This document shows positions 461-63,513 of a stretch of DNA of 64,000 nt, piece after piece; the stretch's first letter is position 1, and the number at the start of each line of letters is the position of its first letter. The notes beneath the pieces are model-generated. The model was not told where the DNA came from. It ran no database searches and was given only the letters and a program-made list of their open reading frames with translations. The stretch is from a virus, in IMG/VR virus record IMGVR_UViG_3300045988_172778, positions 64,001-128,000 of that record; one strand, given 5' to 3'. Made by a program: the position numbers and the translations under genes.

Positions 461-3400
461 ATGAAAAAAACTGACAAAATCGGTGTTGAAATATATTTGA
501 AACAATATGAAGATATGTTTAAACAGTATCAAGAACTTTTAAACAAAGAAATGGGCAATCATAAAGATATGCTAACTTCGATTATGAGAGAGCAACTTGA
601 TGATCTCAAAGATACTTATAAACTTCCAATGGACAAAATCCGAGAAATAGAAGATCGTATTTTGGCGCCGAAATTAAAAGAACAGGCTGAGAAAGCAGCA
701 CAACAAGCTAAAAAAGACGCTGAGGATTATTTGAAGAAGAACCAGGAGACTATCAATAAGGCATTAGGTGTTAATAAAGATAGTATGAAAACACTCTTAG
801 AGACAAATAATTTAGTAGTCGAAAGTAGTAAAAAAGCTCTCGAGGACGCAAAAAAAGCGAAAGAAGCCATAGAGAAACAAGATAAAAAAATGAAGATGGA
901 TAGAGTTAGGGGTGAAAGAACTCTTAAGGCTCAAAAGGCAAGAGCGGAAAAAGAGAGCCGAATGAGAGAGGAACAGGCTAAATCGATGTATTTTGAAGCC
1001 GCACCATCTTCTGATTATGAAGTGATAAACGTGCCTGGATGGGGGCATGATTATAAACATAAAAAAGCTAAAACTGCAAAAATGAGGAGTGGGAAAGAAG
1101 TAGATTTAGGTAACGTAAGGCAATTATCCGTTACCAAATTAGCATCTCTTATAACTCATAATTTTGAAGATTTTGAAGCTTTGGCAAAAGAAAATGCAAA
1201 GAAAATTGCTGATTTTGAATCCAAACATGGTAAAACCCCATTAGACAAAGATAAAGCTAAGGAACTTTCCGATCTTAAAACTTTACAACGTGAATATGAA
1301 GATGCTAATCTAAATTTAACAAATGCCCAAAAAAGAGGAACTGCATTTCATAAAGTGGTCGAGCTTGTAGAAAAAAGTGAAATTTCTTTGGATGAATTAA
1401 CAGAAGATAGATTAGAAGAACTTGGAAAGCAATATGACGAAATCGGGGAAGGGCTTAAACTTCAACAAAGAACCAAAAATGGCAAATTAAGGTCTGTTAA
1501 ACAAAACAAACAAATTTTAGATCTCGTAAAAAAATATGACGAATTTAAAAAACAAGCTGGGTTAAAGGGGCAAACAACTACAGAAACTCCGCTTGGGATG
1601 CTTGTAGATCTTGGTGACGAGGTTGTAGAAGTAGTAGGAACGTTTGATAGTATTTTCAACGAAATGTCGACCCTTGTGGACTTTAAAACTAGTAGCAGAG
1701 TCGATGTAAAAAAAATAGGAATACAGCTAAACTTACTCAAAAAAATGGCGCTCCTTAATCCCAAGTTTATGAAAGCCAAAGGGATAAAGGGTAGCCTCGA
1801 CGCGTTGAAAGTTTTCCATTTGCCATTTAGAGGCGGAAAGGGTGGTGTTTATGACGTTGGCACCGCCGATGATGCAATGATGTGGCAGTGGATAAAATCC
1901 GCTTTCGATATTTTAGCTGGAGAAACGACGGAAAAGCCTGACGTGCCTGTCTTAATGCGTGGTAAATTAACTCTTGGCGAATGGCAGAATAAAAAAAAAG
2001 GTACAAGTGGTAGGCAGTGGTTGCTCAATAATATTTCTTTAAACGATTTAGCCAAACAATATGAAAGAGGCACTATGTCTTACGAGGAAATTATGGATAA
2101 CATAAATTCCTTAAACGAAGAAGACCGTCGGCATTTCATAAATTTGATTTGGAGCACCAAAGAATACGAAGAAAAAAAGAAAACTCAACGAGTATTTAAA
2201 GTCGTAGATGGGAAACGCGTTCCACTGTTAGATGAAAAGGGGAATGCACAATACGATGCGTCTGGCAAGCCATTATATGAGATGCAAGATATTGTGTCTT
2301 CGGTCCCCCCGAGAGAAACTGGAAAATTATACAGACAGGGCGCATTGTGGGACAAATTAAGAGGCGATTTGAATTCTTTTCAAAAAGATATTGAAGGAAT
2401 AGTTGATGATGAATACGCAAATATATCTAATAGAATGACAAAAATTCAAAATCAAATCTCGAAAATCAAAATTTCTTATATAGAAGCAAAAGAATTTGTA
2501 ACCGATGCAAACGGGAATTTAATAGAAACCACAAAAACTATGCCTGCGAATGAAAAAGAAAAGGCGAAAGAAAATAGACGGAATGAGCTAATAATACAAA
2601 GAGAGGCGTTGCGCGAACAGTTGGCTAACCAAGCCACATCTGCTTTTTCTGAACAGGTTTTTAAAACAGATCAAGGATATGGGAGTGCTCAAACCATTGG
2701 TGGCGGGTATTTATCTGAGTGGGCAAAAGCTTATCGTATTCATTCTGAGAGCGGAGATGGATTGGCGGATCAAATCGCTAACCGTTTTGTCAGTTACATT
2801 TTAAACGCTGGATTGTCTAATTTTCAACTTGATGAATTGAAGGGTGGTTTAGTTGGTATAGCGGCAAAAGATGAAGCTAATCAAGCATTTGTGGACGCTA
2901 TTCAAGATAGACTGTTGGGAAAACATTCCGTAATTGCCCCTGATTTAGAGAGAGCCCAAGAACTCGAAAGTCAAATAATAGCACTTAATAAAGAAAGGGC
3001 TTCTTTAGATAAAGATGTTTTAAATCCAAGAATAGAAGAAATCGACAAACTTGTACAACAACTAATTGCGGAACAGGATCGAGTCAAATATGCTCAAGAA
3101 GTTGGTGGGATTTTTACCGATGAATCTATCGGCATAAATGAAATGACGGAGGATTATGCTTCAGAAAAAGGCAAAAAATCCGCTCGGATGCGAGGCGAAG
3201 CCGCAACTAATAGAGCTGCTCGAATGATAAGTCGGTTAAGAGCGTTTTCAGAATATGATTTGTCCGATAAAAGTTTTGACGACGTTATGGGATTTATCAA
3301 AGGTTTGTCTGGAATAAGGAATGAATTTAAAGGATTTTTAAACGCATTGGGTTCAGATGAAAATTCCGAAATAGACGAATATGGTGTGCCTGAATATATA

Positions 3401-5568
3401 GAAAAGAGCGAAAATATTTTGGACGCATGGACCACATTTGTCCGTAATTTAAAAAATAAAGTTCGCGGGTTAGAAAATTTAGACGAAAATCAGATAGAAG
3501 AGGCGGTTCGAGGATTAGACATTTCAACTGGCGTTCAAGAAGACATTGGAGGGCTTGCTAAAAAAACGGGGCATAAATTATCTTGGTTATATCAACTTAA
3601 AGATATTTACGACGAGTTTTTATCGCCAGAGATGGAAGAGGTTAACAAAAGTCTTTCTGAAAAAGCTAAATTTACTTCGGTTGAACAATATGCAAAGTCT
3701 CGACTTACACAAGCTCAATATGAACAATATGCTTCTTCAATTGATTTTAGAAAATCCATATCGGAAGGAAAAGATTTCAGTACCGTAATAAGCCAATTTT
3801 TGGATACGCCTGAATTTCAACTAAAAAGTAATTTGGCGACTGCGTTACAAAAAGCTTTAGCAAAAATAATGGAGGCGAATCCTCAACTTTTAGATGATAC
3901 CATTTATAATATTTTTATGACACAAACTGATTTAGGCGAAGGAAATAAAATGAAATGGTGGCATGGAATTGGGGCATCTGAAAGGTTAAGAAGGGGCGAT
4001 ATTGTTAGAAATTGGGCCTACAATCCCAACGAAATCCTAACGACGAAACCCGAAATGATCGTTGAAGTAGAAGAGAGAGCAGAAGAAAAATTACGCGATG
4101 AAAGTTCGATCAGAGACGCGGTAGAAAGCGCAAGAATCAGGGCGGAACAATCAGCTAGAGAATATAACCAAAAAGCATTTGACATTAAAAAACAAATTAC
4201 GGCTCAAACTGGATTTGATATTGAAGATTATGATAAAAAATATGGATTTGATAAATATGAAAATGCTTATAAAAAATTGTATGCTTTAGCAATAAAGGTC
4301 GGGCGTGGAGAAACTGATTACAAAGATTTTATGAGAGGAGAGCTGGGGGAAACTCATCTCTCTGGTGAAACTTTACAGAAATATGAAGAGCTTCGCAAAG
4401 GATTGGAGATCGCACAACTTCAAATGGGGATGCCCGATGATATGTCCGAAGAAGCGAAAGAGTTGTTTGCTAAAAGGCAACATCTTTTCGAAGAATATTA
4501 TATTCCGTCTCTTAGAGACAAAAGTTATGTCTCTATTTTAAGGAAAAGATATGGGGTTAAAGGCGACGAATCCGATGTTTTAGCTCAGCAAGCAGCGGTT
4601 GTAAACCAGATAAAATCTCTTCCCGATCAAGCACTTTTAAACACCACCTCTGAAATAAACGATGCAAAAAACGTAGACGTCGACGCGAATTCTATTACAG
4701 TGGGTGAACCCGAAAAAGTTGAAAATAATACCGAGACGACTGAAATAAAGGCTGACACCGTGGTGATAAATGAAGCAGAAAGCTCAGCGGATGCCGAAAA
4801 ACCCACCAAACGTCGTGGGCGTCCTCGTAAAAAGAAGGCCGAAGACGTTGAAGTGGCTTCTGAATCATCTGATAAAATGGAAGTTTCATCTGACGGTGGT
4901 ACTGGAGGCGGAGATGGAGGAGGTAAAACCCCACCGAAGTCTAGCGGAAGAAAAGGCAAGAGCGATGAAGAAAAGGCACAAGCGGATACTGAAAAACGGC
5001 AGAAACAAGATATAAGGGAATACCAACTGTATATTAACAGAGTTATAAGCCTTGAATCTCAGATTGATAAACTTCAAAGGCAAGCAGCGTTAAGCGGCGG
5101 AAAGCATAAGGATGCTATTTATGGAACAATTGACGCGCTTAATGAAGAGCTTGGGGATCTTAATCGTAATAACGACGCGCTCAAACAAAGAGTTGCGACC
5201 GAACAAGCAGCAACAAAAGAATCGATTGACGCAACAGCGGCCCTTAAGAAGCAATCAAACGCGCAAAAGAATCTTGTAAGCGTAAAAGGCGCAACTTCAA
5301 TCTGGGATATGATGGCGAACGACATTCGTCGTGCAACCATGCGTGTCGCAGACTTCGGAATTGCTGCGAAGGTTTTGAACAAGATCCCGCAGGATATACA
5401 GAAGGTAATTCAGTATACGAAAGAGTTGGACGCGGCGATGACGAATATTCGTGTCGTTACGGGTGCTTCGGCGGAAGAGGCTCAAACGCTCGCACAAGGA
5501 TATACACAACTTGCAAAAGAATTGGGGATAACCACTGTCGAAGTTGCTAATTCGGCAAACGAGTGGGT
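461..5568 (+). CDS. tail tape measure protein, exon 1
   Basis: ATG follows GGAGG. Long K/E-rich coiled-coil ORF that ends inside a TP901-type TMP core (..AKELGITTVEVANSANEWV). The core continues in another frame at 6743. Confidence 0.8.
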
Positions 5569-6742
5569 TAACAAATGTCTGGCTCACTATAAACTCCTTT
5601 AATTGCTGGAACCCCCTTAGAGCCATATAACTACAACATAACGATGAAATAGGCGTAAGTGTGATAGTTAAAAATATATGGATTGGGAAATCAGCAGCCA
5701 AACCTCGAACAGAGGAAGGTTCAACGAATATGTTCCACGAGTGTGGATAATGGGGAGCTCTACATAGAGAAATCTATGCGAAAGATATATTCTGAACTTC
5801 TGAGGAAACTCAGAGAAAATTCTATAAAAGGAGGTGAAATATTTGTGATAATAGAAAGTGAAGTTAAAATGGTTATAAATCAATATAATTTTGATTATTA
5901 TAAAAATCTTGGTTACGATATTCAAAAATGTGGACAACGAATTTTTGTAAAAGTTTCTGATTTACCAAAAACATCTGGGACAAAAATCCATACGATATGT
6001 GAATATTGTGGAGAAATAGTAGAAAAATCATACCGAAGGTATATAGAATCTATCGAATGTGGGAAAAACTGTTGTTCAAAATGTTTGAAATACAAAATTC
6101 CTGAAAATGTTTTAGAAAAATACGGATGTCGTTCTACTTTAAGAATTCCAGAAATTCATGAATCGGTAACTAAAAATAATCTTAAGAAGTACGGTTGTGA
6201 AAACCCTCTTGAATCAGCAGAAATTAGGGCTAAAGGTGTTCAGACTATGCAGAGTCGTTATGGTTGTAGTTATACCCTTCAAAGTGATGAATTACGTGAA
6301 AAGTGTAATCGGACATTATATGAAAATGGGAACGATATAACTGCGACAAGCAGACAACAAAGATATTTGTGTGATTTATACAAAGGAGAATTGAATTATC
6401 CTATTTGGATTTATCACATAGACATTTTGTTGTCGGACAACATATGTTGCGAATATGATGGAAGCGGTCACGATCTTAGTGTTAAATTAGGTAATGAAAC
6501 AAGAGAAAACTTTATTAGAAAAGAAAATAAAAGAATAACCTTTTTAACAAACCACAATTATAAGTTATTTAAAATACTTTCTAACACAGATATTTTGCCT
6601 AGTGATGAGATACTTTTAAACATAAAGAAACGGGCTTTTGAAATATTAAAAGTCCGAAATTATATGTATTATGAGTACAATTTAGACACAAATATAGAAT
6701 CTTTTAAATGATAAACTAAATTTAAAAGTAACACAATTACAG
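5569..6742 (+). mobile_element. group I-like intron 1 in the tape measure gene (boundaries +/- 3 nt)
   Basis: Interrupts the conserved TMP core. P1-like pairing AGUGGGUU (5562-5569) with GGCUCACU (5581-5588) gives U.G at the splice site. G6742 as terminal G restores the frame. The 5' end taacaaatgt parallels intron 2. An internal ORF has its own SD. Confidence 0.6.
5845..6711 (+). CDS. intron-encoded homing endonuclease candidate (Cys clusters, KYGC repeats, C-terminal Vsr/EDxHD-like PD-(D/E)XK core)
   Basis: AAAGGAGGTG lies 8 nt before GTG 5845. Motifs: CEYCG..CSKC; repeated KYGC/RYGC units; CCEYDGSGHD motif. Confidence 0.65.
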   Translation: MIIESEVKMVINQYNFDYYKNLGYDIQKCGQRIFVKVSDLPKTSGTKIHTICEYCGEIVEKSYRRYIESIECGKNCCSKCLKYKIPENVLEKYGCRSTLRIPEIHESVTKNNLKKYGCENPLESAEIRAKGVQTMQSRYGCSYTLQSDELREKCNRTLYENGNDITATSRQQRYLCDLYKGELNYPIWIYHIDILLSDNICCEYDGSGHDLSVKLGNETRENFIRKENKRITFLTNHNYKLFKILSNTDILPSDEILLNIKKRAFEILKVRNYMYYEYNLDTNIESFK

Positions 6743-9700
6743 ACAAGGTTACGCAGGGGAAGAAGCCAACCAATTGATTGTCGCTTCCTCAAAACTCGCT
6801 AAACTCGGTATGATTTCGACCACCGAGGCAACTAAAGATTTGACGAGCGCGATAAAAGGCTTTAAACTTTCTACAGAAGACGCGATGTCGGTTGTCGATA
6901 AATTGACAAAAATCGACCAAGTGGCTGCAATTTCCGCAGGAAATTTAGCAGAAGGTCTCGCGCGAGTCTCTACTACCGCACAACAAGCAGGGCTTTCGCT
7001 CGACGAAACCGCCGCAATGGTAACTACGATTACCGAAGTTACGCAGCGTGACGCAAGCACGGCGGGTGAGGCGCTCAGAACTCTTATTTCGAGATACTCT
7101 AACGTTAAAGCGGGCGTATTCACGAGTATGGGAGAAGAAGCCGAAGAAACTTCTGGAAACATAAACGATATCGAAAAAGTATTGGGCAAGTTGGGAATTC
7201 GAATTCGTACTTCTGGAACTGAAATGAGAAGTATTGAAGACGTCCTTGACGAATTGGCTGAAAAGTGGAACACATTAGACGATGTAAGTCGTAATGCAGT
7301 TGCAAGTGCTTTTGCGGGCGTTCGCCAACGTGAATCATTCAATATATTATTAAGCAACTGGAACCGTGTAAAGGAACTCACTGAAGAATCTGCTAACGCC
7401 GCAGGAACCGCTGACGAGAAATACTCCGCTTACATGGACTCTATGGAGGCGGCGACGAAGCGGCTTCAAAACGCGTGGGAAGGATTTACTCAATCGCTCG
7501 AAACAAGCACGGTAATGAAATTCCTCACAAATACGACCGCCGCGATAGTCGAAAATGCCGATAAATTTAAGCTCGTTGTAACTGGGATTGCAGCCGCGAG
7601 TTCATTAAAAATTTTTGACTTCTTTACCAACAAAGGTGAAACGGGCGGATTCAAAGGCTTAATCGCCAACATCCCGTTTATAGGTAGAGGAACGAAGACT
7701 AACAATATTCTCGAAAGTATTGACAAAAAAGTCGGTAACATCGAGAAAGGCGTCGGAGCGGATTCGATAGCAAACCAAACGAAGAATGGCGGGTTATTTA
7801 AAAGAATTGGAAGCTTCCTAAAAAATGGTTTTGGATTTGGTGATATTTATGACCCAAATTCTGATACATCAATTTCAAGAAAGACACTCAGATTATATAA
7901 ACAATCCCAAAAAGGCAAAATACGTCTTGGTGATGATTTCCTGGGTTATACTAAGGGGTTAACGGATGATGAACGCGAGCTTTTAAGACTGTCAGCAACA
8001 GTAGGGCGAAAAGATTCTAAAGAAATGATGGAGGCGTATAACAAGCTTCTCAAACAGCGTAAAATCGGGAATGCCGCGATGGGTGCAACTTCTGCCGTTT
8101 TGACCAATCTGTTTACCACGAAACAAGTCGGTGGGGACATTGGCGGTTCTTTCATGAAAAATATCATGGGAATGGGCGATAACGAACAAGTTGTAGAAGA
8201 AACTGCTGGAGATAAAATTGGGAGAACAATTAGTTCTGGTATTCTTGCTGGGGTTGGAGGCTATTTCTTAGGTCCTCTTGGAGCGATGCTCGGGCAAACG
8301 CTCGGCGAGGGGTTTGCAAGCATGTTTTCCACGTGGTATCACCGTGACGAGCTCGCAATGAAGCAGCGTGTTGCCGAAGCCAAAGAAAACCTTTCTGCAC
8401 TCGGCGATATAAAAAACGCTATCGAAAATAACGAGGATTTATTAAACAAAGATTCTTACACGTCTGAGGATATCGAAAAGTTAAAAACATACGCAGATTC
8501 TTTAAGAAAAACCTTCACTAAGAATGACAATTTAGCTGAGTCGTTTTTAGATGACGTTAAGAAACTCGACATTGGAACATTTACGACAATTGAAGATATC
8601 CTCTCTCAAATAACCAAAGGTAATGCCGATATCAATAAGCAGCTTAAGAGACAATTAGAACTCACAACGGCTAGATTAACGGTGGAAGAAACTCTCGGGG
8701 AACAGGAAGAAGATAGGGCGGAAATTAATAAATATAGTAAAGACAATGGATTTAGGGTACTTCAATCGAATACACCAGGTGATTTATCAAATTTTGTCGG
8801 TCGTTTTGGATCTGTATCTAAATATGGCACTATTAGTGTGCGTAACCGTCATGCAATTAAAAAAACAAAATATGGTATTCAGGTTGCTGGAAATACTATT
8901 GAAGAACAATTTGAAAACGCAGAACAGATTTTACAAAATTTTAGGAATGCTGGTGGTAAGTATAACGATATTGCCCAGGAATGGGAAAAAGTTGTTGATG
9001 AATATCAGAAACAATTAAATAAACAAACAGAACTTAATAATGAGCTTTTATCTACTCAAGTTGATTACGCTTATTTAACTTCCGATATTTTAAACACCAA
9101 GTCTCGTGATGAAATACGTGATCTTGGTATGGAAGGCGTTGTTAAGATAATTCGTGACGAACTAATTTCGCAAGGTGTTGGTGTGGTTGATGAGAATGGA
9201 GTAATTCATCAAGACGCTTATGATGCCATCGTTAAAAAGATACGTTCTGACTCGACTTTGAGTGATTATATAACGAAAGATATTCGTTCGATTGGGGATC
9301 TTATTTCCAAAGACGATATACGAGGCATTGAATCGTTTGCAAGAGCATTTGGTTTAACAACCGAGGCGGCGAAAGAGCTTGGTAAGCAGTTTGGATATTT
9401 AACTCAATCAATGGGTTTGATGAACGTTCAAGAGACGACGGAATACTATGAGAAACTGAGTACGGTATTTTCAAATTTAAGCTCGAATGTTGCTTTGACT
9501 GCAGGGCAGATTAGCAGTCTTTTGACGACCTCTGAACTCAAAGATTTGCTTCCGTATTTGATGAACCAAGACGACCCTGACGCTTTGATAAAGGAACTTT
9601 ATAAGAGAATTTACGGCGGCGGTCAGGATGTCCATATGGAGAACGCGCTTTATGACGCGACCATGGGGATGTCGACCGATAAATTCAGAGAATACTTGCA

Positions 9701-10049
9701 AAACAAAGGGCTAAAAGAATATGCTGCTGAAATTGACAAAGGTGGGTATACCACCTTATCTCAAATTAGAGATGCGGTTAAAGAATTTGACGAGACAGAC
9801 CCGAGACGTAAAACGTTTTTGGAATATCTTGAAACGATAAATTATACTTACTCCAAAGACTTGACAGCTTTAGAGAAACCGTCCGAGTATATTAAATCTC
9901 AACTCGAAGAGCAAATAAACAATCTTCAAGAGCAAAAAGATGCTTTATCTCAAATTAATGACGAGAGAGAAAAAGAACTTAATCTAATTAAAGCGAAACA
10001 AGCGCTCGAAAACGCTCGGAAAGAAAAGAGAAGGGTTTATAGACAGGGT
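6743..10049 (+). CDS. tail tape measure protein, exon 2
   Basis: Continues the TMP core: QGYAGEEANQLIVASSKLAKLGMISTTEATKDLTSAIKGFKL..AGEALRTLISRY. There is no SD or ATG at its 5' end. Confidence 0.8.
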
Positions 10050-11288
10050 AAACAAATATGCCCTTAAGTAACTATATCGGTTAAAACCTAGAAGTAGGTA
10101 AGACCGAGGTAAGATAAATTTTAAAATGTTAATATGCAATAAAATATAAATAAATTAAAAAAGGAGGTGATGACATGGAAAATAATATTAAAGAAGATTT
10201 GATAGCGTTAACCAACGAACAGGCAAAGAAGATTAATGCTGAAATTATTGAAAGATTTACGGGGAAAGACGGTAAGGCAAAGTTAAAAATACGCTCTTTA
10301 TCATATCCCGAAAAAGGAGTAAGGGTCGTTGATCGATATAATTTCTTGCACTCCACTGCCCAATATAGATATTTTAACGCCGTGACTTGTAAAAATGATT
10401 TATTGAGACATGAAGAAATAACATCTAGAATTGATATAATTGGAGATTATATCAACACTGCGACAAAAATTTTATGCAAATGTAAAATTTGTAGCAATGA
10501 ATGGATGGTAACTCCAAACAAATTATTACAAGGTCGTGGATGCCCTAAGTGTGCTTCACAAAAAGCACATCGGGCTTACTCTAAATCACATGAAGAATTT
10601 ATAAATGAATTAAAAAACGTCAACCCTTCTATCACGATACTTGATGAATATTATAATAATCGCACTAAAATAAGATACAAGTGTAATATTTGTAATAAAG
10701 TATCTATGTCTACTCCTTGTAAATTATTAGACGGGGAGAGCGGGTGCCATTTTTGTAAAAGCTCGATCGGTGAACAGAAGATATTCTGTTTTTTATTTGC
10801 CCACAAAGTACCATTTGAGAGAGAAAAATATTTTGAAGATTGTAAAGATAAAGGGAAATTACCTTTTGACTTTTATTTATCTGATTATAATATTTGTATT
10901 GAATTTCAAGGTGAACAACATTTCCGTCCAGTAGACTTTTCATATACTCCAACTGAGGAATCGAAAAATAAAGCCGTTGAAAAATTTAAAGGTATTCAGA
11001 AGCGTGATAAAATAAAAGCAGAATATTGTAAACAGAATGGAATACGTCTTTTAATTATTGATTATAAACAAATAAAAAATATAGAAAGCATATTAACAAA
11101 AGAATTAAATTTATCAACCGTAACGACTGCAGGATCTTTGTGGTAACATAAAGATTGAAGTTACTTCAATATGTTTTAGACATATTGTAATATACAGTCT
11201 GAACTCGTAATATAACGAAATGAAATACGAGAGTAAGGATTAACGTCCTTGCCGCCACATTTATTGTGGTCATAAAAGTAACAGATTG
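10050..11288 (+). mobile_element. group I-like intron 2 in the tape measure gene (boundaries +/- 5 nt)
   Basis: P1-like pairing AGGGU (10045-10049) with GCCCU (10060-10064) gives a terminal U.G. G11288 restores the frame. Hairpin-rich 3' segment 11147-11288. An internal ORF has its own SD. Confidence 0.6.
10175..11146 (+). CDS. intron-encoded homing endonuclease candidate (two treble-clef zinc ribbons plus Vsr/DUF559-like PD-(D/E)XK domain)
   Basis: AAGGAGGTG precedes the ATG. Motifs: CKCKICSNEW..GCPKC; YKCNICN..GCHFC; FDFYL..ICIEFQGEQHF..KRDKIK. Paralog of 37798..38964. Confidence 0.7.
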   Translation: MENNIKEDLIALTNEQAKKINAEIIERFTGKDGKAKLKIRSLSYPEKGVRVVDRYNFLHSTAQYRYFNAVTCKNDLLRHEEITSRIDIIGDYINTATKILCKCKICSNEWMVTPNKLLQGRGCPKCASQKAHRAYSKSHEEFINELKNVNPSITILDEYYNNRTKIRYKCNICNKVSMSTPCKLLDGESGCHFCKSSIGEQKIFCFLFAHKVPFEREKYFEDCKDKGKLPFDFYLSDYNICIEFQGEQHFRPVDFSYTPTEESKNKAVEKFKGIQKRDKIKAEYCKQNGIRLLIIDYKQIKNIESILTKELNLSTVTTAGSLW

Positions 11289-12266
11289 ATTGGCTTCGTT
11301 ATGGAAAGCAACGAGGAAGCAATTGCCGAAGCGCAAAAAAATCTCGAGAACTTAAATACTCAAAAACGCCAAGAAAATCTTCAAACGCAAATTGACGCGC
11401 TTCAGATGCAGAAAGACATTATCGAAGCTCTTCCAAATCAGGCTCAACTCGAACAAACCAAAAAGATTTGGGAATTGTGGGCAGCGGATAAGGGAACGAA
11501 AGGAAGTCTTGCTTCTGTAACCGAAGGCGTAACGATGTTGGCGGATGCTTATACAAATGCCACAAATCGGATGAATATGCGTGCTAAAACAGAAGGGGTT
11601 CTAAATACACCTGATGAAAAGAGCAGTATGCAGACATCTGATAAAAATACTAACCCCGTTATCACCCTTAGTGAAACTCAAATAGAATATACTAAAGCCT
11701 TAGTTTCTAACGTGGATGATATTAGAAATATCTTATTAGGGAAACATACTAAAAACTTCCAAAATATGTTGGATTTCGTGAACAAAAACAACATGCTTCA
11801 AGGCGATTATGCACGGTGGGGAGAAATGTTCAGAGCTGCTGGTATATTAAACGAATGGAATTCTTTGTCTGATAAAGAGAAAGAAGCTATTAGAAGCCAA
11901 GCAAATACGAGAGCGGGTGGAGACATTTCCTTCCAAGGCGGTAAAGCTCTTATCAACGAGCTCGGAACCGAAGCGGTCATCACGCCAGGCGGCACGCTTA
12001 CCGCCCTTCCTTCGAAGACGGGTATCGTCCCTGCGGACATAACCCGAAACGTTTGGGCGCTCGGAGAAGTCGCTCCGACGTTGGTCGCACAGCTCGGCTC
12101 GCTTACGCAGAAGACGCTCTCTGGCAACGCTGTAAACACAACTTACGAAGAAGGTCAATACTTCGACAACTTTACGATGAACGTTTACCCCGCAAAGGGC
12201 GACGATTTCAACAAGATACTCGAACAGGCGCGCGCACAAATGCGACTTACGCGTCATAACAACTAA
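11289..12266 (+). CDS. tail tape measure protein, exon 3 (C-terminal part)
   Basis: Open frame with no SD. Joins ..RRVYRQG to IGFVMESNEEAIAEAQ. Confidence 0.7.
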   Translation: MGFVMESNEEAIAEAQKNLENLNTQKRQENLQTQIDALQMQKDIIEALPNQAQLEQTKKIWELWAADKGTKGSLASVTEGVTMLADAYTNATNRMNMRAKTEGVLNTPDEKSSMQTSDKNTNPVITLSETQIEYTKALVSNVDDIRNILLGKHTKNFQNMLDFVNKNNMLQGDYARWGEMFRAAGILNEWNSLSDKEKEAIRSQANTRAGGDISFQGGKALINELGTEAVITPGGTLTALPSKTGIVPADITRNVWALGEVAPTLVAQLGSLTQKTLSGNAVNTTYEEGQYFDNFTMNVYPAKGDDFNKILEQARAQMRLTRHNN

Positions 12267-12428
12267 AATGCGGCTCGATAAAAGAAGCATTTTATTATAC
12301 AAAAAAACGGTTCATTTCGGTTTTATCGCGTTTCCGTAAAAAACGCGTTACCATTAGTTTGGGTGTGGCGGTTGAGAAGACCTCCCGCCCGCCATAACTC
12401 AATAAAAAAATAAAGAGGAGGAAAAATT

Positions 12429-15400: not shown

Positions 15401-15551
15401 TAATAATGGAATTCATAATGGAAGACAATTTGTTGCCAATAAAATATTGACGATGAATTTGGCTTTAAGAAATTATAATAGTAATAGTAGAAGCGATCCC
15501 ACTTTTGCTTCAAGAGATTTTGAATTTAATTTATTCACAAAGGAGGTGTGA
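12429..15551 (+). CDS. large tail/baseplate module protein (family not recognised)
   Basis: AGAGGAGG SD; 1040-aa ORF directly downstream of the TMP. Confidence 0.6.
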   Translation: MAIYKPSNCTPFLTCLDLTKAQDITCELNTSNELVTGYKIKILDSNNDVIFEGAKFDPINPVGYENSGLNGSTLVLPLIVEGKAINNNTIGYQNGGYNVKDLTGTKFDATRFSNGYINQPYKWEIVLEQGNTTGVKADKFYDMTITQGKVLGSTRNRIQSYLSDNIYKDYFIQLNNTSKRVLINSYDHTYGYLYPQENKFTDEEVEAATFFEIYKFSNDPDVIAAGSQVAYAINKPMKEVKIGGKQNTMGWGSNLVYPYYFEQVFKGLPNSYATQNDIPNSAFNSDMSGFLVVGTNVMVKGETDANAFNGIFTLNSVSEKEQEVEVDGKKEKQYDLTLKWLRSTPGNTWANLTNTVFYVQNGTDKGRWQVNTDTQTVGTINQTPVIFIREKPVEIYTDASKGYSSDKTKGQIFKNTIRQVYIRPFIGIESGMRFSYLKKGEIAYKNINDFTIDTETWQLSGNIGEILKPDETQYKISSYFKRGDENPFYAYAKPVVVLFCDGEVLSSDDLNRTIIYRRIANLSAEFQQENNKSWTSFQWYLNDLTDGTTIETDKFYTGNISYEFDGLQDGHIYQAILRIEDEFGNTYDFYGNIEANISIISGKTDLNIEQDCVTQSYLINFTKDGVVIPKYDPQTLGYRVIGDNITSKENYTVKEENAETYEPFAITDIGAYGYNIEYPETASGETYLSLSNIEHLEDFDDRESLMEYDQINITNSEIYTPIATPAGNANTFNSQHKLNAGFVGDIIKYEMDVDDVLFKDTKAIVRIYLPPLTRTNDAGEIELYTNVSNDLYVQYEVKSLEQTNGMDYTVVKTPDDEELFFVKDNDFIVGRYSVIATYTRVYYSGSSGIIFAAKAIPWDAERAQKAKVVSAWVEPGTTADEKCDYIDTDIVYDVEPNNANYRHIRGEGKFNSHGLIHFPFTTSQKETGHPSFFYDKKNALVTQANDAQNNENKINVLTGEYNYIDDGHPESPNYWQDNVSEAEVYAQTNINNNGIHNGRQFVANKILTMNLALRNYNSNSRSDPTFASRDFEFNLFTKEV

Positions 15552-15557
15552 TATATT

Positions 15558-16535
15558 ATGAAAACAATGCGTGTTCTGTTATCAACTTATGAAAAAAACA
15601 CAAACATAGGGCAAGAAGTTTATTTTATCAATATTACAAACTCTTTTGAACCGCTTGGAGAAGAGCCAACAAAAATAGAATATTCCAATAGAAATAATAC
15701 TTCTTTATTAATTAATTATGAAAATTATAAGGATGATAAATTAGACTGCAATTATAAACAAGGTTACGCACCCATTTCTTCTGGTGGAAACGGTGATTCT
15801 TTCGCTTCCGTTTATAAGAGAGAAATTAGAACTAATGACGACGGAACCATTGAACCTCTTACAAAATTATCACCTGTTTTAACCGATATGAATAATTTTA
15901 AAATTAGAGATTTTAATATTTCAAATAACAGAGAATATCAGTACGTGCTTTATTTGGACTATTCACCGACAACTGGCGAAATAGAAAAAACAGTCAAAAC
16001 CCCTGTTAAAACTTCGTGGGAAGCATGGAGTATAACGGAATTACATCCCGTTAATGGAAGTAAGAAATATTTTACGGCAACCGCAGATGATGTGTGGTTA
16101 TTTAATTTGAATGTGAGTACGGGTGAGCAAACACAAAATATTTCGCGTAATGAACAGCAAACATTAGGTCGTTTTAATAAATATTCACAAGGTAAGATGA
16201 ATTATATAAGTGGAAGCGTCAACTGTTTACTCGGAAGCGAAGTTATTCCCGCAACTTATGCAAATAAGGGCGGGTATGTTGAGAGAAGAATTTTTGACAC
16301 AAATCCAACCTCTAATGAGCGGGTAGATATGTTATTGGCATGGAGAAAAGTGGTATATTCTTCAAACCCGAAATTGCTTAAAGACCGTGCTGGGCAATCA
16401 TTTTTAGTAACTCTAAACAGTTCCTCAAATCAGCCAATGGATGCCGTCAAAATTCAACCAAATACTATAAGTTTCAATTGGACTCAAATTGGCACCCTCG
16501 ATGATGTTCAAATAGTCGACAACAGTTTGGAATAA
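15558..16535 (+). CDS. tail/baseplate module protein (family not recognised)
   Basis: AAGGAGGTG SD; 325 aa; lies in the tail operon. Confidence 0.6.
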   Translation: MKTMRVLLSTYEKNTNIGQEVYFINITNSFEPLGEEPTKIEYSNRNNTSLLINYENYKDDKLDCNYKQGYAPISSGGNGDSFASVYKREIRTNDDGTIEPLTKLSPVLTDMNNFKIRDFNISNNREYQYVLYLDYSPTTGEIEKTVKTPVKTSWEAWSITELHPVNGSKKYFTATADDVWLFNLNVSTGEQTQNISRNEQQTLGRFNKYSQGKMNYISGSVNCLLGSEVIPATYANKGGYVERRIFDTNPTSNERVDMLLAWRKVVYSSNPKLLKDRAGQSFLVTLNSSSNQPMDAVKIQPNTISFNWTQIGTLDDVQIVDNSLE

Positions 16536-18209: not shown

Positions 18210-18527
18210 ATGGCAAAAGAAAAGCTTAACACAATGGCGGTAAAAGTGGAAGATATTTTAAGGAACAAATCGAAAGCTCGCGACGACGATAACGTGTTAT
18301 ACGCGTATTTCTTGAACTCGCTTGGTGTTTCGGTTCGTAAAACGTCATTTTGGGAAATCACGCGCCGCGTAGTAAACGGCGATTTGCCGTCGATGGAAAG
18401 TGTGGGGCGTGTTCGCCGCAAAGTGCAGGAACTCAACCCCGAACTCGTCGGCACGGCAGAGAAGAGAAAGATAAGATATAAGGCGATAGACGATTACAAA
18501 GCATTTGCTCGCCAAAAGGAGATTTGA
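18210..18527 (+). CDS. hypothetical protein
   Basis: GGAGG SD before ATG 18210. Confidence 0.7.
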   Translation: MAKEKLNTMAVKVEDILRNKSKARDDDNVLYAYFLNSLGVSVRKTSFWEITRRVVNGDLPSMESVGRVRRKVQELNPELVGTAEKRKIRYKAIDDYKAFARQKEI

Positions 18528-18528
18528 T

Positions 18529-18894
18529 ATGGAAGAAAAAGAGGTTTTTAAAGTTCCCCCGAAAGAGGTTCAACAGGCGGTCATCGACCGCGTTTTGATG
18601 CGGATAGAGGCGCGTCGTTCGAGTTTCACCCGCGAAGACGTAATCGGTTTCGCAAAAGAGGCGCAGATCCCGACCATATACGCAGAGGCGGTTAGCTCCG
18701 CTGTTATCGAGGATTTGGGCAGCAGAATTTTCTCGCGTTTGCTCGTAAACGGAATGCTCATTCCCGTAAAAGGCACCAACTATTACAGGAAAATCACCGA
18801 AGAAGAAATGCAAGCGGCAAAGAAGGCTTATTTGGCGGCGCAGGAAGAGACAACGCAGGAGGCGCAAAATGACGAAAAAACCGTACTTAACTAA
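18529..18894 (+). CDS. hypothetical protein
   Basis: AAGGAG SD before ATG 18529. Confidence 0.7.
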   Translation: MEEKEVFKVPPKEVQQAVIDRVLMRIEARRSSFTREDVIGFAKEAQIPTIYAEAVSSAVIEDLGSRIFSRLLVNGMLIPVKGTNYYRKITEEEMQAAKKAYLAAQEETTQEAQNDEKTVLN

Positions 18895-19225
18895 AGAGCA
18901 GTTCGTAGAGTACGTCGGGCGGATAAAAGCGACGTGCGATAAAGACGACATGTTGTCAGAAGCGGTAGAGAAAGCGTGTAACGATGATTGCCGAGTAATC
19001 GGCTTATACGGCGCTGAATGCTCCGCGATGGTTGATTTGCTCTCGTTCGCAATGGGGTCGGAAGTCGGGACTTGCAGCGGAAATGAGATTGAGTATTTCA
19101 TATACGACCTGAATTTTGGGAAAGATTACGCAGAAGGGTGTTTCACCGAAATGGACGGTACACCGATAGATATTTCAACGGCAGAAAAGTTATACGACTA
19201 TATTGCGTTGGAGGCAGAGAAATGA
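18869..19225 (+). CDS. hypothetical protein
   Basis: AGGAGG SD before the ATG. Confidence 0.7.
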   Translation: MTKKPYLTKEQFVEYVGRIKATCDKDDMLSEAVEKACNDDCRVIGLYGAECSAMVDLLSFAMGSEVGTCSGNEIEYFIYDLNFGKDYAEGCFTEMDGTPIDISTAEKLYDYIALEAEK

Positions 19226-24368: not shown

Positions 24369-24504
24369 ATTAAAGAAGAGGAAGATTTTTTAAATTATCC
24401 CTTACATAGAAAGGGAAATAAAACGAGACCAAAAAAGAATAAGAGAAGCCAAGGAATTTCTTAAACGAATAAAAGAGCACCCTGATGAAGAGTATGGGAA
24501 ATAC

Positions 24505-24921
24505 GTGAAAGACGAAACCGAGAAATGGCAGGCGCAGTATAATACCAAAATTAATAACGAAACAGATTATGCCACTGAGCGCATTAAATACCTGAAACGC
24601 CGTGCCGATGAGTTGCAGTCTTTTCTTAATAGTTGGGAGACGCCTGATGAATATTACAACGTGACTGAAACTTTGAATAATCAGCTTCGGACTGTAAGAA
24701 AAGAAGTCAAAGAGCAGCAAGAAGATAGAAAACTGTTTTATGACAACCTTGAAGACAAACCCGTTATAGCGTCTAAGGAAGTTTATCTGGAAGATATTAA
24801 AGAACAGTGTGAAGACATTATAAAGAGAAGTCGGAATTGGATTTCTGATAATAAAAGAAATATCGAAAGAATGAAAAAGCAACTCGCCCGCCTCAGTCGT
24901 GGATGTTTGTTGAAGAGATAG
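24505..24921 (+). CDS. coiled-coil hypothetical protein; true 5' end uncertain (see finding)
   Basis: GTG 24505 has no SD. Coding-like open frame extends upstream to TAA 24391. Confidence 0.6.
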   Translation: MKDETEKWQAQYNTKINNETDYATERIKYLKRRADELQSFLNSWETPDEYYNVTETLNNQLRTVRKEVKEQQEDRKLFYDNLEDKPVIASKEVYLEDIKEQCEDIIKRSRNWISDNKRNIERMKKQLARLSRGCLLKR

Positions 24922-61575: not shown

Positions 61576-61664
61576 GGAAAGTTGGCAGAGCGGCTGAATG
61601 CGACGGTCTTGAAAACCGCTTAGGCTAAATACCTACTGGGGTTCGAATCCCTAACTTTCCGCCA
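61576..61664 (+). tRNA. tRNA-Ser (anticodon TGA), CCA encoded
   Basis: Acceptor GGAAAGT/ACTTTCC; loop CTTGAAA; 17-nt variable arm; T-loop TTCGAAT. Confidence 0.85.
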
Positions 61665-61702
61665 GTCCCAAGATGATAACTTGGCGTTGTCCACAAAATA
61701 AC

Positions 61703-61731
61703 TTGACAAAGTTCACAAAGTGTACTATACT
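61703..61731 (+). promoter_or_regulatory. promoter cassette 13, internal to the tRNA array
   Basis: TTGACA, 17 nt, TATACT. Confidence 0.6.
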
Positions 61732-61817
61732 TAACTTATCACAATCAAGTATGGTGAAAACCATCAAGCATCTGTTGGGTATGCTCTAATAGGTCTCATC
61801 AACCAACCCAACTTTAC

Positions 61818-61911
61818 GGAAGTTTACTCAATGTTGGCAAAGAGGACGGTTTGCTAAACCGTTAGGTCTTCGTAAGAAGGCGAGCAGGATCGACACCTGC
61901 AACTTCCGCCA
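61818..61911 (+). tRNA. tRNA-Ser (anticodon GCT), CCA encoded
   Basis: Acceptor GGAAGTT/AACTTCC; loop TTGCTAA; 21-nt variable arm; atypical T-loop ATCGACA. Confidence 0.8.
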
Positions 61912-62038
61912 GTAACGTTATACGGATGGTCGCTGTATAGCGGGCTTGCAAGCTTAAATTTCACACGCCTCTCACAGAAGCGTACCACGTGAAATGACCA
62001 AAAGAAGAGTGTGGGATTTATCCCGCATTCTTCAACAT

Positions 62039-62085
62039 TGCCAAGTAGCGAAATTGGTAGACGCCTCGGAAAGACGAGGGTGCAT
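62039..62085 (+). pseudogene. tRNA-like 5' fragment (acceptor strand plus Leu-type D-arm plus GAAA-type hairpin) fused to tRNA-His
   Basis: TGCCAAGTAGCGAAATTGGTAGACGC matches 24 of 26 nt of the 5' part of the tRNA at 62658. No T-arm or 3' acceptor strand is present. Confidence 0.5.
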
Positions 62086-62160
62086 GGGGAATATGGTGTA
62101 ACGGTAACACGGCAGTTTGTGGCACTGCCATTCAGCGTTCGACTCGCTGTTTTCCCACCA
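62086..62160 (+). tRNA. tRNA-His (anticodon GTG) with encoded G-1, CCA encoded
   Basis: D stem GTGT/ACAC; anticodon stem GCAGT/ACTGC; loop TTGTGGC; T stem CAGCG/CGCTG. Confidence 0.8.
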
Positions 62161-62657
62161 TTAAAATGAACAACATGTAATAGGAACATATGCGGGGTAA
62201 AGTGCATTTGAGTAGCAAAATCCTCGTTAGCTTAAAATCTGGCGTCTGCTCATATGGCTGAAGGAGCCCTTGTTGTCTTCGATATTTAAGGAGTAGTGAC
62301 CTGGCAAAGTTGAAACGATACATACAATGCCCGTACCAATACGTATTGGATAAATATCAAAGCGTTATCGCCCTACCGATACGTTAAATCGGGGAATCTG
62401 TATTAGGGGTTTACTGAGATTCTCAAATCATTTAATACGGTAAATGAGGTGAGTAGATTAAATTCAATAAAGCATTCTTTGAATCGAGGGTTTGGATGTG
62501 GTGAGGCTACAAAGACCAACCAACGGTGTCTTAGGGTAAAGTAGAAGAGATTTGTGTTTTATTGAATTTTAGTTTAAAAACAACGGAATACGAATTTGTA
62601 TTTCGAAATTCGGATTGGCGTTTATTCGTAAGTGAGGTGCAAACTCAAACGCTATAT
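62161..62657 (+). ncRNA. candidate structured ncRNA spacer, about 0.5 kb
   Basis: ORF-free; shares the motifs ATATGCGGGGTA..AAGTG and GTTTACTGAGA..TCTCAAA with 60492-61575. Confidence 0.35.
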
Positions 62658-62742
62658 TGCCGAGTGGCGAAATTGGTAGACGCATCAGATTTTGATTCTG
62701 ACGACGAAAGTCATGGGGGTTCAAGTCCCTCCTCGGTAGCCA
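62658..62742 (+). tRNA. class-II (long variable arm) tRNA with anticodon TTG (Gln codons); amino-acid identity uncertain
   Basis: Acceptor TGCCGAG/CTCGGTA (U1-A72); G73; Leu-like D-arm; stem TCAGA/TCTGA; loop TTTTGAT; 13-nt variable arm; T-loop TTCAAGT; CCA. Confidence 0.75.
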
Positions 62743-63053
62743 AAGGTTTCTAGTGTTCCTTTATAAACTAGCGGTAGTGATGCCGATAATAAGAGAGTTG
62801 GATTTAAAAACTTTACTGCCCTAACAGTGTAAATAAGCAAGTAGTCAACTTTAAATGAGGAACTTTAGGGGCTCTACCTTATACATCAGTTTTCTTTTCT
62901 AATTCTAAACTAAAAAGAAATAGTAACCATTATGCCGCATATACCTTCATACGGCGGGGAAGAAGGAAGAGAAGGCGGAGTTTGGGATCGTGCGCACAAG
63001 TCGGCACCCATCGAGGCAATTACTTCGGTTAGGCGTAAGATTGCTACGTTTTT
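62743..63053 (+). other. ORF-free spacer, possible structured RNA
   Basis: No SD-linked ORF; hairpins such as aaagg..ccttt at the 5' end. Confidence 0.25.
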
Positions 63054-63087
63054 ACGAGTTTTTCGGTGAATAAAACTCGTATTTTAT
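63054..63087 (+). terminator. terminator-like hairpin plus U-tract abutting tRNA-Trp
   Basis: 9-bp stem acgagtttt/aaaactcgt followed by ATTTTAT. Confidence 0.4.
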
Positions 63088-63162
63088 GCACCTTTGGTAT
63101 AACGGTATTATCCTGGCCTCCAAAGCCATGGGATCTGAGTTCAAATCTTAGAGGGTGTGCCA
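63088..63162 (+). tRNA. tRNA-Trp (anticodon CCA), CCA encoded; weak D-stem
   Basis: Acceptor GCACCTT/AGGGTGT (with G.U pairs); loop CTCCAAA; T arm CTGAG-TTCAAAT-CTTAG. Confidence 0.65.
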
Positions 63163-63243
63163 GAACCCTGCGGTAGGTATACATACGCGCAGTCCGAAGC
63201 TATTGGCGGATATGGAATTTGTGTATAGCTAGCACACTACGAC

Positions 63244-63292
63244 GGAGTGGACGGGGTTTCCCGCGTACCAGACAAAAGAAACCACTCCACCA
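63244..63292 (+). other. acceptor-stem minihelix ending in CCACCA, abutting the tRNA-Pro 5' end
   Basis: GGAGTGG ... CCACTCC-A-CCA, with an internal CGGG/CCCG hairpin. Confidence 0.35.
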
Positions 63293-63369
63293 CGGGGTGT
63301 AGCGCAGCTTGATAGCGCGTTCGGTTTGGGACCGAAAGGTCGGAAGTTTGAATCTTCTCACCCCGACCA
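63293..63369 (+). tRNA. tRNA-Pro (anticodon TGG), CCA encoded
   Basis: Acceptor CGGGGTG/CACCCCG; D stem GCGC/GCGC; loop TTTGGGA; T-loop TTTGAAT. Confidence 0.85.
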
Positions 63370-63436
63370 TCGCCGCGTCGGTTCGAACCCGACCAATGAT
63401 TGCAAGGAACGGCAATTATAGTGGATAGCGGCACGT

Positions 63437-63513
63437 GCACTCATCGCCTAAACGGAATAAGGCTTCGGATTTGTAACCCGAGGATGCGGAATCATACTCC
63501 GCTGAGTGCTCCA
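63437..63513 (+). tRNA. tRNA-Thr (anticodon TGT), CCA encoded
   Basis: Acceptor GCACTCA/TGAGTGC; loop TTTGTAA; T arm GCGGA-ATCATAC-TCCGC (atypical loop). Confidence 0.75.

Follow-up and report, generated by a model that had tools for sequence, protein, structure and literature searches.

A 64,000-nucleotide stretch of the IMG/VR virus record IMGVR_UViG_3300045988_172778 (positions 64,001 to 128,000 of that record; this whole stretch is referred to as the window) carries on its plus strand a tape measure protein (TMP) gene that a program-made list of open reading frames (ORFs) divides into three successive ORFs, 461..5602, 6774..10067 and 11286..12266, with smaller plus-strand ORFs between the pieces at 5683..6711 and 10175..11146. 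An initial reading made from the letters of the DNA (referred to as the sequence-only reading) proposed that the gene is interrupted by two introns. The frame does break at 5568/5569 and 10049/10050, and the peptides said to flank the breaks (..ANSANEW^V and QGYAGEEANQLIV.. at the first, ..RRVYRQG^ and IGFVMESNEE at the second) are all located in the sequence. Both 5' junctions are preceded by GGGT, as described, and the inserts begin TAACAAAT (5569) and AAACAAAT (10050). Joining 461-5568, 6743-10049 and 11289-12266 gives 9,393 nt, which can be read without an internal stop codon as the predicted 3,130 codons and a final stop. Both interruptions are very probably group I introns, and their removal would leave a single TMP; sequence anatomy, RNA-structure conservation and presence/absence polymorphism are observed, splicing and homing inferred.

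Intron 1 splits the conserved PhageMin_Tail domain mid-way, since Pfam PhageMin_Tail matches exon 2 alone only from profile position 28 (90.2 bits) and the full profile (positions 2-201, 104.2 bits) is recovered when exons 1 and 2 are joined. The joined junction-1 region finds 257 phage TMP genes by tblastn, the best matches listed being single unbroken pieces across the junction, with a best identity to an isolated phage of about 29%. The junction-2 region has no tblastn match among isolated phages, and its homologues came from a large protein database. The protein homologues P0001 (92% identity), P0002, P0003 and P0007 are unbroken at junction 2 (..RVYR(Q/A)G(V/I)GF..), and P0004-P0006 (98% identity) end in ..RRVYRQGKQICP followed by a stop codon, which corresponds to read-through into the same intron 2. 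Inspection of the sequence bears out the claims that neither a Shine-Dalgarno (SD) sequence nor a start codon lies at the exon 2 and exon 3 boundaries and that the inserts are not inteins, each holding stop codons, the first of them 11 and 6 codons past the respective junctions, together with an SD-led ORF; intron 1 also changes the reading frame between exons 1 and 2. The ORFs that pass for ‘tail protein’ (three) and ‘hypothetical/HNH’ (two) would really be one 3,130-residue tape measure and two mobile introns. As a rule of thumb, a tail extends about 1.5 Å per TMP residue, by which a protein of this size implies a very long tail.

Alleles with and without the introns are found among related contigs. 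Neither insertion is present in L003 (87% identical to the window) and the second is absent from L004. The empty site at junction 2 is exact and leaves no gap, L003 and L004 reading AGACAGGGT^GTCGGG where the window reads AGACAGGGT, the intron and then ATTGGC. L099 provides an exact empty site for the copy of intron 1 in L002. The close relatives L002 and L005 hold both insertions, a 145-kb IMG/VR contig (L021/L102) is nearly identical to the window, and independently assembled contigs also carry these introns (L002, L005, L100-L105 and L164-L183). Copies of intron 1 that have no ORF (L100, L105, L178) retain the core and the last ~60 nt, and the intron 1 ORF of L002 is longer, at 494 aa.

Some of these contigs have irregularities of their own. 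In L003 the gene call splits the TMP into two ORFs separated by 11 nt (L003 2096-2108), and L004 has about 100 nt extra at 1102-1203, with 55 nt of overlap against window 9565-9619, and a gene call that begins only at an internal Met; in each case a frameshift, an assembly error or a small insertion is possible. L002 has an extra 222-aa ORF (15466-16134) between the TMP gene and the one that follows it, absent at window 12267-12428, which may be a free-standing mobile gene.

A group I core can be modelled for both interruptions, that of intron 1 by the Rfam family RF00028 and that of intron 2 by a model of its own family, referred to as R1, together with covariation. The covariance-model search (cmsearch) with group I models that had been suggested as a check has a mixed outcome: intron 1 reaches the RF00028 threshold and intron 2 has no RF00028 match but is matched by R1.

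On its sequence, intron 1 belongs to a common phage type recognised by Rfam, matching the whole of RF00028 (model positions 1-253) at 5559-5815 with 51.7 bits, against a gathering score of 50 (E 1.5e-12). This match is obtained only by scanning 5540-5860 (321 nt). Rfam scans of the whole window and of 6 kb return no group I match, intron 1 being lost to the speed filters in both the default and the ‘permissive’ setting, so that default filters overlook a genuine group I intron in a 64-kb scan. Whole-window RF00028 negatives are unreliable, because an above-threshold intron is missed unless 321 nt are scanned. The guanosine-binding pair in P7, identified by inspection of the sequence, is G5726-C5792, with bulged C5725 and A5724-U5793. 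The intron 1 core resembles introns in 209 phage records, including Bacillus SPO1-like phages, Vibrio ICP1, Lactococcus AM phages and Streptococcus phage Str-PAP-1, where the intron lies in the TMP gene.

The P1 helices had been proposed as 5562-5569/5581-5588 for intron 1 and 10045-10049/10060-10064 for intron 2. The latter is as proposed, and the intron 1 helix is read as 5562-5568/5582-5588, with U5568.G5582 as the wobble. This helix has compensatory changes at two positions, the window having AGUGGGU/GCUCACU, L002 AGUGGCU/GGUCACU and L100 ACUGGCU/GGUCAGU; U5568.G5582 is taken as the 5' splice-site pair of intron 1 because P1 covaries with the exon across alleles. The non-ORF parts are hairpin-rich, as had been noted, and their folds are more stable than those of shuffles (z = -3.5 in the core of intron 1, z = -6.6 in intron 2 with its ORF removed; 0 of 200 shuffles as good in each). 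The ‘related element’ that the two introns were said to have in common does not survive comparison of the structures: AAACCUCGAACAGAGGAAGG (5700-5719) is the P6 hairpin of intron 1 and AAACCUAGAAGUAGGUAAG (10084-10102) is J4/5-P5-J5/4 of intron 2, so their likeness is superficial and the positions are not homologous.

Intron 2 reads, from its sequence, as a td-like subgroup IA intron outside RF00028. The covariance model R1, built from 13 other viral introns with the window left out, has a single match in the window, 11117-11288, with 146.2 bits (E 3e-38), ending exactly at G11288. RNAalifold on 13 members without the window finds P7, P8, P9, P9.1 and P9.2 unaided, with double changes at 21 of 28 pairs; over 88 R1 matches in 67 sources, 95.7% of cells are paired and 26 of the 28 pairs have double changes. 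The family covariation score is 0.587; shuffles give 0.142 (0 of 500 reach the family score) and slid partners no more than 0.078. Comparison with the TMP insertion of Thomasclavelia phage TR-TP1 and with IMG/VR homologues gives compensatory changes in P3, P5, P6, P6a, P7, P7.1, P8, P9, P9.1 and P9.2, those in P3, P5, P6, P6a and P7 being read by eye from the homologue sequences. For P3 and P6 direct reading was used because the MAFFT alignment of full ORF-deleted introns is misaligned in P1/P2 and P7.1-P3'. The homologues have GUAACU/AGUUAC, ACAAACU/AGUUUGU, GAGAACU/AGUUCUC, UGGGU/ACCCA, GUAGC/GCUAC and GAUAACU/AGUUAUC in P3, and GACUG/CAGUC, GACUA/UAGUC, GAUCA/UGAUC and GAAUA/UAUUC in P7. 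When intron 2 is folded without its ORF, the minimum-free-energy (MFE) structure contains all the non-pseudoknot helices, the long-range P3 among them, and sequence inspection places the guanosine-binding pair of P7 at G11125-C11199, with bulged C11124 and A11123-U11200. The non-coding ends are ~71-75% identical to those of the TR-TP1 insertion, whose site, ..RVYEEG^VGW.., is the equivalent one. Exact copies of the 21-nt 3' tail GGTCATAAAAGYAACAGATTG are present in 91 IMG/VR stretches, in many different genes, some copies being ORF-less introns of ~270 nt. A whole td-like intron family appears to go uncaptured by RF00028.

The intron 2 family is large and has a 3' module that is conserved. Its members (tail GGUCAUAAAAGYAACAGAUUG) often occur as 3-4 copies within a few kb of one locus, for example in L049, L097, L009, L077 and L035, and some viral genes in IMG/VR (L008-L098) are riddled with them. 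In L010/L093, in L007/L056 and at window position 10049, introns of this family lie at the TMP motif ..RVY..G.GW.., a few codons apart; the sites are offset (RVYEEG^VGW in TR-TP1, RVYDSSLGWV^W in L010) and all follow GGGU, with the guide GCCC. L059, L078 and L084 appear to have such introns at a further conserved TMP-like motif, with 5' exons ending ..VVDKLIAV, ..IVDKFNLVG and ..VDAFNKVG (compare ..SVVDKLTKIDQ.. in the window), and each of the three has two introns a few hundred to ~1,400 nt apart in apparent TMP exons. A blastn search with the L066 intron against phages gives no match. An R-like motif found by regular expression at 20159 was considered as a third intron and rejected, the site being ordinary primase-like coding sequence. 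Both introns of the window have the 3'-proximal string AAAAGUAACA (6729-6742 and 11274-11288) though their cores are of different families; the tail of T4 nrdB (CAUAAGAGAACGGGUUG) is similar. Conserved TMP motifs such as ..NEW.RQGY.. and ..RVY..G.G.. appear to be recurrent homing sites in unrelated Firmicutes phages.

Table 1. Coordinates in the window of the TMP exons, the two introns, their structural elements and their ORFs.
Feature	Coordinates	Strand	Remarks
TMP exon 1	461..5568	+	1,702 codons + 2 nt; ends ..GAG TGG GT; frame continues 11 codons into intron 1 to TAA 5600-5602
TMP exon 2	6743..10049	+	ends ..AGA CAG GGT; first base 6740 should splicing follow the empty-site boundary
TMP exon 3	11289..12266	+	325 codons + stop; homologues contiguous at ..RVYR(Q/A)G(V/I)GF..
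Intron 1	5569..6742	+	group I; canonical boundaries after U5568 and after G6742; DNA insertion by presence/absence 5569..6739, ending in A
Intron 1 catalytic core	5594..5813	+	whole core
Intron 1 P1	5562-5568 / 5582-5588	+	AGUGGGU / GCUCACU; U5568.G5582 at splice site; sequence, MFE fold
Intron 1 P3	5594-5599 / 5752-5757	+	Rfam alignment, MFE fold, sequence
Intron 1 P4	5604-5609 / 5691-5696	+	Rfam alignment, MFE fold, sequence
Intron 1 P6	5703-5706 / 5712-5715	+	Rfam alignment, MFE fold, sequence
Intron 1 P7	5726-5731 / 5787-5792	+	Rfam alignment, MFE fold, sequence
Intron 1 P7.1	5735-5738 / 5743-5746	+	Rfam alignment, MFE fold, sequence
Intron 1 P8	5763-5768 / 5773-5778	+	Rfam alignment, MFE fold, sequence
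Intron 1 P9	5800-5804 / 5809-5813	+	Rfam alignment, MFE fold, sequence
ORF1 (intron 1)	5845..6711	+	288 aa; GTG start, AGGAGG 8 nt before; 3' of P9; putative homing endonuclease
Intron 2	10050..11288	+	T4 td-like group I; boundaries after U10049 and after G11288; exact empty sites in L003, L004
Intron 2 halves	5' 10045..10121; 3' 11107..11288	+
Intron 2 P1	10045-10049 / 10060-10064	+	U10049.G10060; sequence, MFE fold
Intron 2 P2			absent
Intron 2 P3	10068-10073 / 11159-11164	+
Intron 2 J3/4			AUA
Intron 2 P4	10077-10081 / 10103-10107	+
Intron 2 J4/5			UAAA
Intron 2 P5	10086-10090 / 10095-10099	+
Intron 2 P6	10108-10110 / 11117-11119	+
Intron 2 P6a	10113-10121 / 11107-11115	+	closes the ORF loop
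ORF2 (intron 2)	10175..11146	+	323 aa; ATG start after GGAGGTGA; in P6 loop
Intron 2 J6/7			GUAAC
Intron 2 P7	11125-11129 / 11195-11199	+
Intron 2 P7.1	11134-11141 / 11148-11155	+
Intron 2 P8	11169-11174 / 11180-11185	+
Intron 2 J8/7			UGUAAUAUA
Intron 2 P9	11204-11209 / 11226-11231	+
Intron 2 P9.1	11235-11239 / 11246-11250	+
Intron 2 P9.2	11255-11259 / 11265-11269	+
Intron 2 conserved tail	ending at omega-G 11288	+	GGUCAUAAAAGUAACAGAUUG

The statement that each insert has an SD-led endonuclease ORF is upheld, both ORFs matching phage homing-endonuclease families. ORF1 matches phrog_12131 (‘homing endonuclease’, 5e-38) and Pfam DUF7487 (4e-13), and its segment IDILL..CCEYDGSGH aligns weakly (E 0.07) with the catalytic motif FDFYL..CIEFQGEQH of ORF2. 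The last codons of ORF2 overlap J6/7, P7 and P7.1, with the stop codon in the P7.1 loop. ORF2 has 804 homologues and matches phrog_559 (7e-60), phrog_9084 and phrog_7140, families that carry HNH, homing and intron-encoded nuclease annotations; in Pfam it matches CapR/DUF4379 zinc ribbons and, weakly, DUF2726 (E 0.042). An AlphaFold model of ORF2 made from 56 homologues (pLDDT 89.8) has as its best fold in the PDB the E. coli Vsr structure 1cw0_A (probability 1.00, TM-target 0.54), followed by 1vsr, and D232, E243, G246, H249, D278 and K281 are invariant in the 56 homologues, giving the motif D...E-x-(D/Q)-G-x-x-H...D..K. ORF2 is, on this model, a putative homing endonuclease with zinc ribbons and a Vsr-like PD-(D/E)XK domain. 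I-Bth0305I is an example of the Vsr-like PD-(D/E)XK (‘EDxHD’) homing endonucleases, a class with which ORF2 has in common the predicted C-terminal Vsr-like fold and motif, and from which it differs in its N-terminal CapR/DUF4379 zinc ribbons and in having no sequence match to a solved homing endonuclease.

In the proposed mechanism, two mobile group I introns, unrelated to each other, would have entered the ~9.4-kb TMP gene of an uncultivated ~145 kb phage, and each would fold into a ribozyme once transcribed. The guide would pair with the end of the upstream exon (P1), setting a U.G wobble at the cleavage site, where free guanosine would attack on the 3' side of U5568 and of U10049. The upstream exon, its end now released, would in turn attack after the terminal G of the intron, joining the exons into one mRNA for the 3,130-residue TMP, a protein expected at about 350 kDa. 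For intron 2 the expected junction is ..AGACAGGGU^AUUGGCUUC.., with the peptide QGIGFVMESNEEAIAEAQK. From its own ribosome-binding site, each intron gene would give a predicted PD-(D/E)XK (Vsr-like) homing endonuclease, which would cut intron-less TMP alleles of co-infecting relatives, and repair would copy the intron in.

Several observations weigh against this interpretation. Intron 2 (10030-11300) has no match to RF00028 at E<=10, nor has the ORF-less family member L010, and RF00028 appears blind to this subgroup. Intron 2 is linked only weakly to the td and nrdB introns of T4, and only with filters off: R1 run over the 7.4 kb T4 td-nrdB region gives as its two best matches the 3' domains of these introns, with 10.1 and 8.9 bits (E 0.07 and 0.15), the td match ending at the last base of the intron, and gives no match there with default filters. 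The match of ORF2 to the Vsr fold has a modest Foldseek E-value (7e-3), and PDB sequence searches with both ORFs return no solved homing endonuclease. Lastly, splicing of intron 1 at G6742 would give ..NEW-V-QGY.., one residue short and with a conserved Arg lost, and the Pfam profile favours the Arg-containing version by 7.9 bits.

The last of these points bears on where intron 1 ends. The sequence-only reading chose G6742 as the terminal guanosine; it is the sole canonical in-frame G, but it lies 3 nt past the boundary given by the empty site. The exons of L099 and L002 are essentially identical, and L099 reads GAGTGGCT^CAGACAAGGTTAC, which is L002 minus precisely the block that matches window 5569..6739. 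The boundaries of this insertion cannot slide given the flanking bases, and it ends at A6739. In all 10 uninterrupted homologues aligned, two residues stand between the W and the following Q/A-G, nine having ..W(L/M/N/R)R(Q/A)G.. and one having Lys for Arg. An alternative, tentative at best although favoured by these observations and by the Pfam score, is that the intron 1 exons ligate between A6739 and C6740, so that the Arg is kept (EW-V-R-QGY) and the intron ends in a non-G. The guide strand points the same way: 5576-5581 (UGUCUG), next to the P1 strand, is complementary to 6740-6745 (CAGACA), so that 5576-5588 (UGUCUG, GCUCACU) is gaplessly complementary to ligated AGUGGGU^CAGACA, a textbook contiguous P1+P10 with the 3' exon starting from C6740. 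A6739 is moreover fixed in the ~16 intron copies found, which have several diverged TMP exon backgrounds and occur with and without the ORF.

Against ligation at A6739 stands the terminal G, which is considered universal among group I introns, and the P7 guanosine pocket of intron 1 looks canonical. No G other than G6742 would preserve the reading frame. The tails of the intron 2 family vary between ..AUU and the terminal G (GAUUG, GAUUAG, GAUUUAUG, GAUUAAUUG), and because the ..AUU-to-G distance varies in related introns, AAUUACAG looks like an ordinary intron end. Ectopic insertion via the shared 9-mer CAGACAAGG would equally explain the apparent boundary. Use of G6742 is the reading we favour, as slightly more likely than not, with intron-bearing TMPs then being without the Arg and ectopic entry through the 9-mer being possible; mixed or other 3' splice outcomes take the remaining probability. 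A search for an ancestral intron 1 ending ..AAUUG^CAGACAAGG finds none, all G-variants in IMG/VR and metagenomes being unrelated sequence and every copy in an intron context having A; L103, considered as such a G-variant, was rejected, the site lying inside an uninterrupted DnaE-like ORF, and a search with the 17-mer intron 1 tail returns mostly chance AT-rich matches. With G6742 the expected junction is GAGUGGGU^ACAAGG (peptide ..ELGITTVEVANSANEWVQGYAGEEANQLIVASSK); with A6739 it is GAGUGGGU^CAGACAAGG (..ANSANEWVR followed by QGYAGEEANQLIVASSK).

It is also conceivable, if unlikely, that intron 1 is a natural group I intron with no terminal G of its own, the mobile unit ending at A6739. This may take two forms, in which ligation occurs after a non-G despite an ordinary pocket, or in which an exon G three bases downstream is routinely borrowed. 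The former, if true, would make intron 1 an exception to a rule that is taken to apply to all group I introns; in the latter case the conserved Arg, present in every intron-less TMP, would be missing from all intron-bearing ones. How 3' splice sites are chosen is a question on which the 3-nt offset of the sole terminal G from the insertion boundary bears.

That the TMP is instead split by endonuclease cassettes into three separate polypeptides, with no RNA splicing, is very improbable. Gene callers annotate separate ORFs in relatives, and exon 2 has an internal ATG at 6811, used for P0004. The exon boundaries, however, lack translation signals and the Pfam domain is cut mid-way; the ribozyme cores on either side of the ORFs are complete and covarying and are retained where the ORF has been lost, and changes in P1 go with those in the exon. 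Nothing beyond the interruption of a conserved protein speaks for inteins, group II introns or assembly artefacts, which are next to negligible, given the stop codons in all frames, the frame shift that intron 1 imposes between exons 1 and 2, the absence of a reverse-transcriptase ORF and of any group II match in Rfam, and the recurrence of the same structures in many independent assemblies.

Interruption of a TMP gene by two group I introns is already known in kind, and the pair in the window is well supported. The description of such an arrangement as unusual does not hold, since it was published in 2008 (PMC2504315), and TMP genes split in this layout with endonuclease ORFs also occur in Str-PAP-1, TR-TP1 and many IMG/VR contigs. 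In prophages of the B. cereus group, IA1 and IA2 group I introns (TMP-IVS1/2/3) occupy three TMP sites, with two TMP introns in one gene in prophage E33L and further introns in terminase and tail-tube genes (Tourasse & Kolsto 2008; PMC2504315). Spliced group I introns have also been described in capsid and tail genes of cluster J mycobacteriophages (PMC3706429). The introns of the window resemble those of the B. cereus prophages in their host gene (a TP901/PhageMin_Tail-type TMP), in being apparently of phage-type subgroup IA, in occupying several sites with up to two introns per gene, in the coexistence of intron-plus and intron-minus alleles, and in a P1/P10 fitted to the site. They differ in phage lineage, here an uncultivated phage of ~145 kb with a 3,130-aa TMP, and several of the published introns have no complete endonuclease gene. 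The orf142 gene of Staphylococcus phage Twort, which Landthaler and Shub reportedly described in 1999, is said to hold three group I introns; it is alike in having several group I introns in one phage gene, and both the gene and the introns are different.

Intron 2 has the same order of elements as the T4 td and nrdB introns (subgroup IA2, for which self-splicing is proven), namely J6/7, P7, P7.1, P3', P8, J8/7, P7', P9, P9.1 and P9.2. As in T4 td, its ORF lies in the P6 loop, and its tail CAUAAAAGUAACAGAUUG resembles that of nrdB (CAUAAGAGAACGGGUUG). The T4 introns encode GIY-YIG (I-TevI) or HNH (I-TevIII) endonucleases, whereas that of intron 2 is predicted to be Vsr-like, and they lie in genes of nucleotide metabolism rather than in a structural gene. 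Intron 1 resembles an intron in the RNA polymerase beta gene of the Serratia jumbo phage 2050HW (MF285618) and its relatives, with 75-79% nucleotide identity over P3-P6; by megablast, window 5592-5698 is 79% identical to an unannotated 2050HW stretch between two RNA-polymerase beta pieces. The 2050HW region likewise matches the full RF00028 model (82.6 bits) and has an endonuclease ORF, but there the endonuclease is a different protein and lies upstream of the core, and the host gene and host phylum differ.

Elsewhere in the window, six tRNA genes are clustered at 61576-63510 on the plus strand (Rfam, 45-62 bits), and two minus-strand ORFs, 18433-19101 (222 aa) and 24370-24882 (170 aa), lie amid otherwise plus-strand genes.

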